From: Vicinamibacterales bacterium | GTDB lineage: Bacteria > Acidobacteriota > Vicinamibacteria > Vicinamibacterales > CAVVIG01 | DNA: 30,388 nt | Reading direction: 5' to 3' | Assembly (NCBI GenBank): GCA_050250175.1 | Contig: JBFWPD010000001.1 | Coordinates: forward strand, 1-30,388 | Shown: positions 7,763 to 21,246 of the stretch, in pieces | Position numbering within the stretch: the first letter of the stretch is position 1 | Layout of the letters: each line of letters opens with the position of its first letter | Notes under the pieces: model-generated | Told to the model about the DNA's origin: nothing | The model's input: only the letters and a program-made list of their open reading frames with translations | The model's database searches: none | Position numbers and translations under genes: made by a program

Positions 7763-7886
7763 GGCTTCAGGCTCCGGGCTACTTCGGGCTTCGGGCTTCG
7801 GGCTACAGGCTTCGGGCTTCGGGCTTCGGGCTTCGGGCTTCGGGCTTCAGGCTTCAGGCTTCAGGCTTCAGGCTACAGGCTTCAGG
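7763..7886. repeat. Heptamer tandem array (GGCTTCG / GGCTTCA / GGCTACA), 17 units
   Basis: Counted directly: 17 consecutive units from 7763 to 7884, one of them 10 nt (7777-7786). GGCTTCG-dominated block first, GGCTTCA-dominated block second. Confidence 0.97.
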
Positions 7887-16724: not shown

Positions 16725-16868
16725 GAATTAGGTATTGGGAATTGGGAATTCAAGAGGAGCTTCACGCCCGGGGCTCGACGATCTCATTTCAACGTTCAGC
16801 CCAATATCCATTTTCAGCATTCATTCCAACATTCCATTCTCAATTCCCAAGTGCCTAACTCCTAATCT
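16725..16868. repeat. Degenerate heptamer arrays (GGGAATT / AATTCCC type) in inverted orientation
   Basis: Left: gaattag gtattgg gaattgg gaatt (16725-16750). Right: ccattct caattcc caagtgc ctaactc ctaatct (16834-16868), with more degenerate TTCAGCA/ATTCC units from about 16810. Arms are imperfectly complementary. Confidence 0.8.
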
Positions 16869-18988
16869 CCGAGCGCCGTCATGAGTGCGTCCGGCGCCGA
16901 GATTGGTGCGCCGCACGTGAAGTCGCGGCACACATAGGCCGTCGCCCTGCCGTCGATTGGCCGCATCGCCGCAACAAAGGGCATGAGCGCACCGAGTCCT
17001 GCCTGCTGCGCGCGAGAGAGGCGAAGCACGGTGGTTGACGGAAGGTAGCGTACGGCAAGCGCCCAATCGAGCTCGTCCGCTCCAGCGTCGCCGACGATCA
17101 CGACCTGCCTGAGTCCGGCGAGATGGATGGACAGGGCCGCTGCCATCATCGGGACGGCTCGCCCCGTCTGCTCCAATCTCTTCCCGAACAATCGGAGCGA
17201 GCGGCTGATTCGATCGGCCCAGTCCGCATCCTCGGCAAGATGCGACAGCACGAGCAGATTCTGAACGGAGACGGACGTTGCCGTCGGCTCCGCACCGTCG
17301 TAATCCTCTTTCAGGCGAAGCAGCACGCTTGGATCCCGGCCGGTCGTGCTGAACCATCCGCCGTCGACCTGGTCCCAGAACAGCTCGTCCTGCCTGCGCT
17401 GCAGTGCGAGCACCCACTCGAGCCATCGCGGATCGGGATCTGCCTGAAACAGTTCGAGCACACCCGCGATCAGAAACGCGAAGTCCTCGGCGTAGGCGTC
17501 GATCTCGGCATGTCCCTGACGGTAGCGCCGCAGCAGCGTCTTCGAGTCCCGATCCCACATGCGCTGCTCGATGAAGGACGCGGCGCGCCGTGCGGCATCG
17601 ACGAGGCCCGCACCGGATTCGGCGTCACGGCCCCCCGCGGCCTTCAGCAGGCGTCCTGCGCGGGCAAAGGCGCCGATCATGAGTCCGTTCCAGGCCGTCA
17701 GGACCTTGTCGTCGAGATGAGGCCGTGGCCGCGCCAGCCGAGCCTCGAACATCGCACACCGCACGCGTGCGAGCACGGCTCGCACATCGGACTCCGGCGT
17801 GCCTGACTCTGATGCGACGTCCTCGATCGCTTTCGCAATGTAGAGGATGTTCTTGCCGACAAACTCCTGCTGCGGATCAGCCGGCGCGTTGCCCGCAGGC
17901 TCGACGCCGAAGTGGCGCTTCACGAGGGCGGTGTCGGATCCGGCAAGCTCGTCGATCTCACCCGCAGTCCACAGATAGAAGGCCCCTTCCATCTTGCGTG
18001 CGCCAGGATCGCCTGCGTGCTCCGGAGGGATGCTGTCGGCATCCTCGGCGGAGAAGAAGCCGCCCGCTTCGTCCGTCATCTCGCGCATGACGTAGCGCAA
18101 CGTGTCTTCGGCGACGTCCATGAAGAAGCGGTCGCCGGATACCTGAGCGGCATCCAGATACGCCTGAACCAGCTGCGCCTGGTCGTAGAGCATCTTCTCG
18201 AAATGAGGCACGCGCCATTCGGCATCGACGGAGTAACGATGAAATCCTCCTCCGACGAGATCGCGCATACCGCTGAGCGCCATCGCCTGCAGCGTCGCCA
18301 GCGCCATGTCGCGCGCGTACGTGTCGCCGGTTCGCGCGTGCTCGCGAAACAGGAACAGCAACTCGCTGGGCCGCGGAAACTTTGGCGCCGAGCCGAAGCC
18401 GCCGTGCCGGTGGTCGAACGAGTCTGCAAACTGACGGACCGTCCGCGCCAGCGCGTCGGCTGACGGCTCGCTCCCTGCCGCCTCCGTCGCTATGGACGAA
18501 CGCAGGTCGGAGGTCACCCCCTCGGCGGAGGCTTCGATCTTGTCGCGGTTCTCGTGCCAGACGCGTGCGATCTCCTGAAGGATCTCGATGAAGCCGGGGC
18601 GGCCCCAGCGTGCGGACGGCGGAAAGTAGGTACCGCCGTAGAACGGCTTGAGATCCGGCGTCAGCCAGACGCTCATCGGCCATCCACCGGATCCGGTGGT
18701 CGCCTGCACGAAGGTCATGTACACGCGGTCGACGTCGGGGCGCTCTTCCCGATCGACTTTAATCGACACGAAGTGCTCGTTCAGCACCGCCGCCACCGCG
18801 GCGTTCTCGAATGACTCGTGCTCCATGACGTGACACCAGTGGCACGTCGAGTAGCCAATCGACAGAAAGATGGGCCGGCCCTCGCGGCGCGCCTTCTCGA
18901 ACGCTTCGTCGCCCCACGGATACCAGTCCACAGGGTTGGCCGCGTGCTGAAGGAGGTACGGACTGCGCGTTCCGGCGAGGCGATTCAT
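16862..18988 (-). CDS. Thioredoxin-domain protein, YyaL/SSP411 family
   Basis: [61 protein letters not shown] and [18 protein letters not shown] are characteristic of this family. Confidence 0.92.
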
Positions 18989-18994
18989 TCCGCG

Positions 18995-19070
18995 ATTATG
19001 ACACTCGCGTGCGGCACGCTCACCTGGACCCGCCCGCTGGTTCGCCGCAAACGATCAGGTGCAGTAAGAT
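18995..19070. promoter_or_regulatory. Divergent -10 elements for the yyaL-like gene and pfpI
   Basis: Minus: TGT-CATAAT (19000-18995), N6, ATG 18988. Plus: TAAGAT (19065-19070), N7, ATG 19078. No good -35 matches. Confidence 0.5.
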
Positions 19071-19077
19071 TTCCCGC

Positions 19078-19626
19078 ATGGCTGATGCGGCTTCGCTGAC
19101 GGGAAAGCGGGTGGCAATGCTCGTCGAGGACGAGTTCGAGGATCGGGAACTGACGGGTCCACTCGAAACGCTGCGTGCGGCAGGAGCCACGGTCGTCCTC
19201 GTGGGCGCCACGGCGGGCGGCAGCTATCGCGGGAAGCGTGGCGAGGCAGTCGTCACCGCCGACATCGCCGCGGGTGCCGCGAAGATCAAGGATTTCGACG
19301 CCGTGGTGATCCCCGGCGGGCACGCGCCCGACAAGATGCGGATGCGGCACGCCATGGTCGACCTCGCGCGCGACGCCATGCAGGCCGGCAAGCCCGTGGC
19401 GGCCATCTGCCACGGCCCGCAGGTGCTCATTTCGGCCAACGCCCTGCGCGGACGCACACTCACCTGCTGGCCCTCGATTGCGATCGACGTCAAGAACGCC
19501 GGCGGCCTCTACGTCGACAAGCCCGTCGTCGAGGACGGAAATCTGATCACGTCACGCAAGCCCGACGACGTGCCGATGTTCAGCGAGGCGATCATCCGCG
19601 CGCTCGCGCGTGTGCAGGTGCCGTAA
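19078..19626 (+). CDS. DJ-1/PfpI family protein (type 1 glutamine amidotransferase-like; glyoxalase III/protease I-like)
   Basis: FEDREL, VIPGGHAPD, nucleophile AICHGP, GNLITSRKPDD. Start moved to ATG 19078. Confidence 0.92.
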   Translation: MADAASLTGKRVAMLVEDEFEDRELTGPLETLRAAGATVVLVGATAGGSYRGKRGEAVVTADIAAGAAKIKDFDAVVIPGGHAPDKMRMRHAMVDLARDAMQAGKPVAAICHGPQVLISANALRGRTLTCWPSIAIDVKNAGGLYVDKPVVEDGNLITSRKPDDVPMFSEAIIRALARVQVP

Positions 19627-20045
19627 CACGAGACACACGAAAACGGACAGAGACTCGGCACGAAGGCACGAAGAGAAACACGAAACACACGAAAAAGACA
19701 CGAAACACACGAAAATACGAAACACACCAAAGGTGGGACACACACAGACCTGCCAACGACTACAGCGCCGCCAAAGACGCGATCAGACTGATCTTCAGGA
19801 ACCGCTGCCGCCTTCTCCCATTCCGGCCCTTCTGTAAGCGCTGGTTCCTTGCCTTCGCGGCGCTCGTCGCCTTCTCACAGGAGGAGCGGCACCTGGAACA
19901 GGTGACAGGAAGCGCGTGGTGCCAGGGCCTCTGGATCTGCGACCAAGCTCGCAGGCTTCGTGAGTTTCGTACTTCGTGGAGTTTCGTGTCTTCGTGCTTC
20001 GTGAGTTTCGTGTTTCCGTGTTTCGTGTGTTTCGTGTCTTCGTGA
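19627..20045. repeat. Large inverted-arm element: (CACGAA)n left arm, ~225-nt core, (TTCGTG)n right arm
   Basis: Seven exact CACGAA in 19627-19730 and nine exact TTCGTG in 19957-20044; perfect 20-bp inverted repeat 19695-19714 / 20021-20040. Spans exactly from the pfpI stop to the yihY stop. Confidence 0.93.
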
Positions 20046-20951
20046 TCAGAAAGCATCGATGCGCGGCGTCGGCGCCGCCGCCATCGTGTCGGGCCGTCCA
20101 CGACGCAGGCGCGCGTAGGCGGCCGTGAGCTCTGCGCCGTACAGCAGGATCACGGCCTGCGTGTACACCCAGATCAGGAACACGACAACCGCCGCAATGG
20201 ACCCATGGATCGCGGACAGCCGTCCGAGGTCGCGGAACATCCAGGTGAAGGCGTCGAGCACGCCGGACCACAGCAGTCCGGTCACGGCCGCGCCAACCCA
20301 GACATCGCGGAAACGCACGTCGGCATTCGGCACGAAGTAGTAGATCAGGCCGACCACGCCGATGAACAGCGCGGTCGTCGCGTAACGAATCAGGAGACTG
20401 CGGAACACCTCGAGCGCCGGGAACCGCGCCAGCACCTGAGCGAACCATGTCGCGTCCACGACGTGGGAGGCCGTCACCACCAGCAGGGTCGCAAGGAGGA
20501 TCAGACCCGCGCAGAGCATCATCACGAAGGCGACCAGCTTGTGCTGCCAGAAGCTCCGCGCCTTCTCCACACCCCACGCATGGTTGACCGCGCTCGTCAC
20601 CGCGCCGAATACGCCGAACGAGCCCCAGACGAGGAAGAGGGCGCTTGCGACCGACAGGCCGACGACACTCGCGGACAACGCGTCGAACTGATTCGCGATG
20701 AACTCGAACTGCTGCGGAAAATAGCGGAGGATGAATCGCAGGACCTCGGTCCGGCTCTCCTCGTCGCTCGTCGCATTCGCGAGGATCGCCAGGCCGAGCA
20801 TCGAGAACGGAAAGAGCGACAGCAGCGCGTAGTACGCGATCGACGCCGCGTAGGTGAGGTTATCGCTGCGATAGAACCCCACCAGCCCGTGCCACGCTGC
20901 CAGGGCCGTCAGCCGCCCGACCCCGCGGATACGATGGCCCGCGAGGGCCAA
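20046..20951 (-). CDS. YihY/virulence factor BrkB family membrane protein
   Basis: AASIAYYALLSLFP, AVNHAW, LIYYFVPN and LIWVY...ILLYGAE motifs. Start inferred at TTG 20951 (GAGG upstream) to avoid overlap with the upstream gene. Confidence 0.85.
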   Translation of the reverse strand: MALAGHRIRGVGRLTALAAWHGLVGFYRSDNLTYAASIAYYALLSLFPFSMLGLAILANATSDEESRTEVLRFILRYFPQQFEFIANQFDALSASVVGLSVASALFLVWGSFGVFGAVTSAVNHAWGVEKARSFWQHKLVAFVMMLCAGLILLATLLVVTASHVVDATWFAQVLARFPALEVFRSLLIRYATTALFIGVVGLIYYFVPNADVRFRDVWVGAAVTGLLWSGVLDAFTWMFRDLGRLSAIHGSIAAVVVFLIWVYTQAVILLYGAELTAAYARLRRGRPDTMAAAPTPRIDAF

Positions 20952-20973
20952 CCGCCTCGACCAGCCGCGACGA

Positions 20974-21246
20974 TCAGAACGGGCTGGTCTGGTTTGAGTG
21001 CGGGTACCGATGGGTGTCGATGCGGTCGATGGCATCCCGAACGATCTTCCAGCCTTCGCGGGCAGCTCCCGCCGCCCCGAACATGGTGCCCGTCACCCGG
21101 CTCAAATCGCGAGCCGCTTCTTCCAGACCGGGCTCGAGCTCGCGGCGCAGTGCACGGCCGCGCTCGGTAAAGAACAGATAGCCGGCCAGGGCGCCGACGA
21201 CGGCGCCGATGACCGACGCTGCGACCACTTGTGATTGCTCTGACAT
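20974..21246 (-). CDS. Small membrane-anchored YtxH-like protein
   Basis: GGAGG SD; N-terminal Gly/Ala hydrophobic stretch (IGAVVGALAGYLFF) followed by a helical region; adjacent to yihY-like gene. Confidence 0.6.
   Translation of the reverse strand: MSEQSQVVAASVIGAVVGALAGYLFFTERGRALRRELEPGLEEAARDLSRVTGTMFGAAGAAREGWKIVRDAIDRIDTHRYPHSNQTSPF

Follow-up and report, generated by a model that had tools for sequence, protein, structure and literature searches.

A palindromic element spanning stop codon to stop codon between convergent pfpI and yihY genes of a Vicinamibacteria genome, probably a gene-less member of a selfish family with inverted tandem-repeat arms

Small inserts with inverted ends are found in the 23S rRNA of Leptospira and Coxiella, where these intervening sequences (IVSs) sit in helix 25 or 45, and those bearing an open reading frame encode proteins of the S23p type (PF05635). 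RNase III removes the stem duplex of an IVS from the rRNA. Arrays of short units are found in intergenic DNA as well; cyanobacterial STRRs, which are arrays of directly repeated heptamers, have been known since 1990. For REPs, transcription termination and mRNA stabilisation have been proposed as side effects, and REP/BIME elements partly end transcription units in enterobacteria. The classes of REPs have been described (PMC3733652), and intergenic repeats of the heptamer TAACTGA have been reported in Beggiatoaceae, Cyanobacteria and Bacteroidetes, with 169 direct sets and 1 inverted set and with translational regulation as the proposed role (MacGregor, 2015, PMC4679880). A full-text literature search returned no description of small genes boxed by inverted tandem arrays.

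The element analyzed here lies in a window of 30,388 nucleotides, the whole stretch of DNA under analysis, which belongs to a metagenome-assembled genome of Vicinamibacteria, Acidobacteriota (4.15 Mb, 594 contigs, 65% GC, 95% complete). It fills 419 nt from stop codon to stop codon between two converging genes. pfpI (DJ-1/PfpI family; PF01965, E = 9e-52) occupies 19009–19626 on the + strand and ends in TAA at 19624–19626, and a gene for a yihY/BrkB-family membrane protein (PF03631, E = 4.5e-49) occupies 20046–21035 on the − strand, with its stop codon read as TCA on the + strand at 20046–20048. An earlier reading of the DNA, made from the sequence only, had placed the two ends of the element exactly at the stop codons, and this was borne out; the left arm begins directly after the TAA of pfpI, at 19627, and the right arm ends at 20045, directly before the yihY stop. 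The left arm (19627–19732, + strand, 106 nt) is a degenerate tandem array of CACGAA(A/G)-type units of 8–9 nt, purine- and A-rich and, as had been noticed, nearly free of T (54 A, 28 C, 22 G, 2 T). The right arm (19955–20045, + strand, 91 nt) consists of TTCGTG-type tandem units, that is, the reverse complement of the left-arm unit, and is likewise A-poor as described before (5 A, 17 C, 27 G, 42 T). Between them lies an orphan core, or loop, of 222 nt and 63% GC (19733–19954), to which no strand is assigned and which is without an intact ORF. The earlier repeat counts also held; seven exact CACGAA are found on the + strand of the left arm (19636–19713) and nine exact TTCGTG, or CACGAA on the − strand, in the right arm (19957–20044). 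The same is true of a higher-order duplication (19678–19695 = 19698–19715), seen by TRF as a period of 20 with 1.9 copies and 100% match, and of a perfect 20-bp inverted repeat (19695–19714 / 20021–20040), which is part of a 31-nt, 87% inverted pair. Over the whole window and both strands, CACGAA is found 39 times, vs 17.0 ± 4.6 in shuffles, and none of 100 shuffles reaches 39. The spacing of units within the arms is irregular, being 8, 9 and 11 nt in addition to the 20-nt period.

Folding of both strands, which had been proposed as a check, predicts that the arms pair as one long, imperfect and bulged stem (MFE −183 and −192 kcal/mol; z = −5.5 on each strand, with 0 of 100 shuffles folding as well). 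Like an IVS, the element is thus a small insert whose inverted ends are predicted to pair into a long stem and whose loop, in this type of element, may carry a small gene. Unlike an IVS, it lies between the protein genes pfpI and yihY, no rRNA being found in the window with Rfam, and its arms are tandem arrays of 7–9-nt units instead of unique inverted sequence. An assembly artefact was ruled out, since independently assembled contigs from two landfill-metagenome runs read through the complete element, beginning in pfpI and ending within yihY, without a single difference (19393–20123 and 19393–20468). No arm-length variants between the two landfill samples were seen at the level of contigs. 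An apparent joint of 19674 to 19983 with 15 letters between them was also considered as a variant of the locus and rejected; it is the loop of another copy of the family on contig C54. The C-terminus of pfpI is native (...IRALARVQVP*, vs ...IRALSRVHVP* and the like in relatives). yihY ends in ...PTPRIDAF*, three residues (DAF) past the usual ...PR[VT]* of relatives (20046–20057), and its new stop adjoins the right arm; from this comparison of ends, insertion of the element or later lengthening of it may have altered the yihY C-terminus.

The sequence-only reading had treated the element as if it were a singular structure, which it is not. When arrays were defined by at least three copies of 7–9-nt units, 401 were found genome-wide in about 8 unit families (GGCTTCA, GAAGATT, GGGCGGGAA, CACGAAG, ATCTGGTC, CTTCGGG, ATTTGGTC and GGGAATT), and about 41 CACGAA clusters, each with at least three CACGAA, were found as well. 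A second, compact CACGAAG/CTTCGTG hairpin with a 70–89-nt loop lies in the window itself (1548–1706). The arms, which were to be searched against the genome, therefore have many other copies. Inverted pairing was detected for at least 47 arrays, the gap being 15–110 nt in most cases and 200–570 nt in a second class. Their polarity is nearly invariant; 44 pairs are '+-', or unit followed by its reverse complement, vs 2 '-+' (p = 3e-11), and both '-+' pairs are neighbouring hairpins. All six CACGAAG pairs are '+-', with CACGAAG units 5′ and CTTCGTG units 3′ on either strand. The window element conforms to this family in having (CACGAAGR)n on the left and (YCTTCGTG)n on the right in the fixed polarity. 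Two further arrays are present in the window. One at 7763–7883, between two genes, is unpaired and has about 17 GGCTTCR heptamers in a GGCTTCG block and a GGCTTCA block; its unit family is the largest in the genome with 84 arrays. The other, at 16725–16868 (array part 16725–16843), is an AT-rich GGGAATT / AATTCCC heptamer hairpin between co-directional genes, and belongs to a small family of 9 arrays in the genome.

The interiors of the paired copies behave quite differently from the arms. Loops of roughly 10 paired CACGAAG copies are unrelated to one another and to the interior of the gene-bearing cassette described below, so only the arms are shared between copies. Derivation of the gene-less loops by deletion from that cassette was considered and rejected, as no loop sequence is common to a loop and the cassette interior or to different loops. 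We know of no mechanism that copies the arms alone. Arms can also enclose a host RNA gene, since a tRNA-Leu(CAA) gene (979–1067) lies between inverted CTTCGGG / GAAGCCC heptamer arrays on contig C48 (868–1187). Five other tRNA genes in the genome have an array within 60 nt.

The family shares features with several known kinds of repeat. Like REPs and the REPIN-RAYT system, it consists of high-copy extragenic palindromes with a bias to 3′ ends and convergent junctions, and like REPIN-RAYT it has many gene-less copies and a single gene-bearing copy flanked by inverted copies of the repeat, at about one gene per family. Membership in REP-RAYT was nevertheless rejected, since no Y1/RAYT transposase was found in this 95% complete genome (PF01797, 0 matches). 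The arms are variable tandem octamer arrays of 91–106 nt, unlike the 20–40-bp palindrome with a GTAG or CGTC head of REPs, and the loops, unlike those of REPINs, are unrelated between copies. The likeness to heptamer direct repeats (STRR; PMC4679880) lies in short-unit tandem arrays that are nearly all intergenic and adjoin start or stop codons, in many sets per genome and in a patchy phylogenetic distribution. The present repeats differ from those of PMC4679880 in inverted pairing, fixed polarity, units of 8–9 nt and enclosed small genes. With MITEs they share short length, lack of coding capacity, intergenic position, inverted termini, occurrence in multiple copies and a presumed need for a protein acting in trans; unlike MITEs, they are without target-site duplication, conserved internal sequence or an associated transposase family, and have variable-length tandem arrays as termini. 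CRISPRs, with 23–50-nt direct repeats and unique spacers of similar length, differ from these contiguous 8–9-nt units in inverted arrays.

A gene is enclosed in one CACGAAG copy of this genome. On contig C25, CACGAAG and CTTCGTG arrays surround the sole GxxExxY gene of the genome (PF13366, E = 3.8e-35), whose product has intact GLREVSY and D...EVK motifs; GxxExxY proteins are presumably nuclease-like, with the PD-(D/E)xK nuclease fold. It is the only gene-bearing CACGAAG copy, while about 25 others and the window copy lack the gene. Among homologues of the C25 protein in other Vicinamibacteria, at least 26 of 30 loci have a CACGAAG-like array on the left and a CTTCGTG-like array on the right, in an orientation independent of the strand of the gene. 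More distant GxxExxY homologues are found with variant units, among them CACGGAG, CACAGAG, CACCGAG and CACGACG, and the unit type tracks the protein tree (9 changes, vs 11–17 in 300 label shuffles). Such sequence comparison shows that gene and arms are co-inherited, which does not in itself prove that the protein recognises the unit. (CACGAAGN)3 is patchily distributed; among 301 genomes sampled from the class, it was found in 29 and not in the other 272. A GxxExxY homologue is encoded in 23 of the 29 and in 46 of the 272 (odds ratio 19, with related genomes not being independent).

The other unit families have enclosed genes of a different type. Five PF05635 genes of the genome, of the S23p or '23S rRNA intervening-sequence protein' family of four-helix bundles (4HB), are boxed by GGCTTCA (C27), ATTTGGTC (C381), AGTGAAG/CAATCTT (C229) and CCCGTCCTG (C41), the fifth gene lying at a contig end. 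In the order as a whole, 33 PF05635 genes were inspected. Inverted arrays lie on both sides of 25 of them, on one side of 7 (of which several are at contig ends) and on neither side of 1, and the units around them are of many different kinds. The presence of 4HB genes in the loops of sister families, both in this genome and in the order, is a further likeness to IVSs. The window's own family departs from ORF-bearing IVSs in that its gene is GxxExxY and not PF05635, and that the window copy is gene-less.

The family-wide data bear on one of the regulatory readings proposed earlier, in which the array offers sites to a multimeric protein that binds RNA or DNA. Such a protein, which could be TRAP-, CsrA- or Csp-like, would co-regulate the mRNAs that have CACGAA repeats directly after their stop codons. 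One short motif is indeed present in many close copies on both transcripts, its unit sequence is conserved across genera, and for the directly repeated heptamers of Beggiatoaceae a role as binding sites of post-transcriptional regulators has been put forward (PMC4679880). But the periods in the arms are irregular, and arrays that come as inverted pairs in one polarity would lock each other up in a duplex. The architecture recurs in about 8 unit families that are unrelated, no common function links the genes alongside, and the motif was not found in most of the class genomes searched, as given above. The comparison with TRAP in particular finds no support in this irregular spacing, in the common architecture of the eight unit families or in the unrelated loci at which they lie. 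A TRAP array has about 11 (G/U)AG triplets at a regular 2–3-nt spacing in leader RNA, whereas the cores here are of 6 nt at a spacing of 8–11 nt, and the element lies 3′ of genes and is paired with a complementary array. We consider a binding array of this type highly improbable.

The history of the junction was examined in relatives. Of 80 Vicinamibacteria loci, 63 have pfpI and yihY in convergent orientation, mostly directly so, with a median spacer of 61 nt. By this check, which had been proposed, the relatives do not have in place of the insert an unrelated spacer of similar length; together with the other copies of the arms, this goes against the first two of the outcomes that were to refute the earlier reading. 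In 22 of the 63 the genes overlap or have a spacer of less than 25 nt without a hairpin, 6 have small CACGAA/TTCGTG hairpins of 58–164 nt, 14 have arrays of other units (GGGATTC, AATGCAC, GGCTTAC, GGCTTCA and others), 13 have plain spacers, and in 8 a further gene separates pfpI from yihY. The window core is found in none of these junctions. Relatives whose pfpI is 86–88% identical differ in the filling of the junction, which therefore has a fast turnover. In the closest relatives of the set searched, identity is about 88% for pfpI and about 63% for yihY. Two relatives have long fillings of their own; one (L111:2044–2306, approximately) has CACGGAGA/GAGTCTCT arms and a core of about 190 nt in the pfpI-yihY spacer, and the other (L024), with a spacer of 572 nt, has GCATTCT-type arms and a core of about 400 nt. 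Both long cores are unrelated to that of the window.

The distribution of arrays over the genome and at this junction also bears on a selected bidirectional 3′-end element, namely a terminator and/or an mRNA-stabilising stem shared by the convergent pfpI and yihY transcripts. Repeat hairpins would then be the normal end of transcription units in a lineage without canonical stem-plus-U-tract terminators. The long stem predicted on both strands is in accordance with this. Arrays are intergenic, and 150 of the 401 array edges are within 10 nt of a stop codon; with genes called by a crude ORF caller written for the analysis, the proportion of intergenic regions occupied by arrays is 12.7% for convergent, 7.4% for tandem and 6.0% for divergent ones, so that arrays are about twice as frequent in the first as in the other two, and their density per kb is about three times as high in convergent as in divergent regions. 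Canonical terminators are not in excess (7 vs 9.6 expected in 20 kb of the window, none at 3′ ends), and some array is present at the pfpI-yihY junction in about 20 of the 63 relatives. On the other hand, the 22 relatives with overlapping or nearly touching genes have no hairpin and the 13 with plain spacers have no array, and the unit family at the junction varies among close relatives, which is turnover and not conservation. The stem is without a U-tract, and no intrinsic terminator-like site was found in 19600–20100, where the right arm is followed by ATCAGAAAGC. The same type of arm encloses protein genes and a tRNA gene, and purifying selection that removes inserts from promoters would account equally well for the scarcity of arrays in divergent regions. 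A selected 3′-end element of this kind is therefore, in our judgement, unlikely. A further suggestion of the sequence-only reading, a long dsRNA stem controlling the convergent transcripts, fared in part; the stem is predicted on both strands, but dedicated control of pfpI and yihY is unlikely because the junction is empty or filled by other repeat families in close relatives, and because the same hairpins adjoin unrelated genes throughout the genome.

The core is the part of the element for which no relative is available. At 222 nt it is much longer than the usual loops of 15–110 nt, and it has coding-like 3-base periodicity (GC by codon phase 0.80/0.58/0.51, p = 9e-4) in the + frame from 19734. 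The matching + frame is open and has the best codon log-likelihood of the six frames (0.11 per codon, a low but gene-like score next to the 0.25 ± 0.12 of real genes). An ATG, GTG or TTG is, however, lacking before 19902, and the peptide is atypical in being rich in Cys, Trp and Arg. A search of the core against the genome and relatives, which had been suggested, gave neither a copy nor a homologue: no second genomic copy was found, no match to Pfam at E ≤ 10 or to Rfam families, no match by tblastx among 139 related loci, and only chance matches of 20–30 nt in 300 genomes of the class. The core has no excess of secondary structure either (fold z = +0.28 on both strands). For want of an Rfam match, a second copy, a homologue and excess structure, we rejected the possibility of a conserved element or sRNA. 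A minus-strand peptide, '...QRFLKISLIASLAAL*', suggested a decayed 4HB or GxxExxY gene; this candidate was also rejected, since Pfam was negative and HMMs built from the 4HB proteins of the genome and from 30 GxxExxY homologues gave negative bit scores. Because the core has no trace of GxxExxY or 4HB, descent of the element from a complete cassette by decay is unsupported. When the + peptide was searched with HMMER against 1.84 billion representative proteins, three matches were obtained (P0001, P0002 and P0003, the last with E 1.5e-4). Homology to a real protein was rejected, as in the two matches inspected, P0001 and P0002, weak similarity is added up over repeats within proteins that are unrelated.

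These properties of the core are those on which a variant of our main reading would depend, in which the element is the relic of a larger, once autonomous and now dead cassette and the core is a decayed cargo gene of a family not yet known. The length of the core, its periodicity and its open frame argue for such a relic. The absence of a homologue in Pfam, custom HMMs, representative proteins and class genomes, the lack of an in-frame start codon before 19902 and the composition of the peptide argue against it; moreover, since arms can box in host DNA, as with the tRNA gene, the core could be trapped host sequence. We regard a dead autonomous cassette as decidedly unlikely. The core itself may go back either to an ORF of unknown type that has decayed or to host DNA that became trapped.

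Taken together, the results make a selfish insert the most likely identity of the element, rather than a device that evolved to regulate pfpI and yihY. It is probably a non-autonomous member of a family of selfish, IVS- or REPIN-like cassettes, any role as terminator or stabiliser being a by-product. Among the proposals made before, the best fit is that of a mobile or relic element bounded by repeats, given the copies of its arms, the near-empty junctions in relatives and the gene-bearing copy elsewhere in the genome. The family consists of dispersed palindromic cassettes in Vicinamibacteria, each arm being a tandem array of the octamer CACGAAGR, which in the arms of the present element has drifted partly to CACGAAAC(A). 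Its complete form encloses a GxxExxY gene, absent from the present element, and sister families with other 7–9-nt units enclose four-helix-bundle genes. The ancestral spacer between the convergent stop codons of pfpI and yihY was presumably close to zero; the element would have inserted or arisen exactly between both stops, and its arms would have grown by slippage until halted by coding constraint, with the core as unique DNA, possibly a decayed cargo ORF of unknown type. The stop-to-stop appearance would follow from this near-zero ancestral spacer and from selection that keeps the repeats out of coding DNA; arrays in general share this appearance, so many of their edges lying near stop codons. 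A transcript reading through the element would contain a much-bulged stem of about 90 bp. Such a stem might stop 3′ exonucleases, make RNA polymerase stall or become a substrate of RNase III, as in the IVSs of rRNA. We take any such effect on RNA as a by-product and not as the reason for which the element exists.

How the family spreads is less easily answered. We infer that the elements move or are generated de novo. A target-site duplication was sought at the flanks of the window element, ...GCCGTAA / TCAGAA... (TCAGAAAG...), and none was found, which counts against mobility. By analogy with REPIN-RAYT, the GxxExxY protein would act in trans on the arrays. More specifically, each cassette protein might recognise its own unit (CACGAAG-type units by GxxExxY, heptamers by 4HB proteins) and create or spread inverted arrays in trans, a proposal we make tentatively and consider somewhat unlikely as it stands. 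One possible route would be nicking or the healing of a break with templated addition of units to both 3′ ends, which would account for the fixed polarity, for loops that differ from copy to copy and for the boxing of host DNA such as the tRNA gene, or of the orphan core.

The locus by itself is an ordinary member of its repeat family, with an effect on pfpI and yihY that is likely incidental, and the family is a little-described variant of selfish palindromes of the IVS/REP type. What makes the family worth experimental study is that the intergenic DNA of a soil Acidobacteriota genome is filled with about 400 arrays, roughly 20 kb in all, which follow a strict architecture, and that they stand in a one-family-one-gene relation to two small protein families without known function, PF05635 and PF13366. 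If the cassette proteins act on the arrays, these two families would gain a function; if this is true, the origin of rRNA intervening sequences and of intergenic heptamer and octamer repeats would also be explained. Action in trans would further define a selfish system of protein plus repeat comparable to REPIN-RAYT with unrelated enzymology, and would unite rRNA IVSs with the short tandem intergenic repeats of several phyla.

The arrays also have practical consequences, since they break metagenome assemblies and mislead ORF callers, which read arrays as coding. Several contigs of the genome begin or end in arrays (C41:1–30, C19:1–47, C239:1–46, C27:16771–16866); the repeats are likely a cause of its fragmentation into 594 contigs, and array counts are lower bounds because contigs end inside arrays. 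In two soil metatranscriptome runs from other studies (X5, X11), no contig lay over the element, which contigs cannot show to be absent from the RNA, and 151-nt contigs were identical to parts of pfpI and yihY (region 18900–20900). The organism or a very close strain thus appears in soil RNA libraries as well as in landfill samples.
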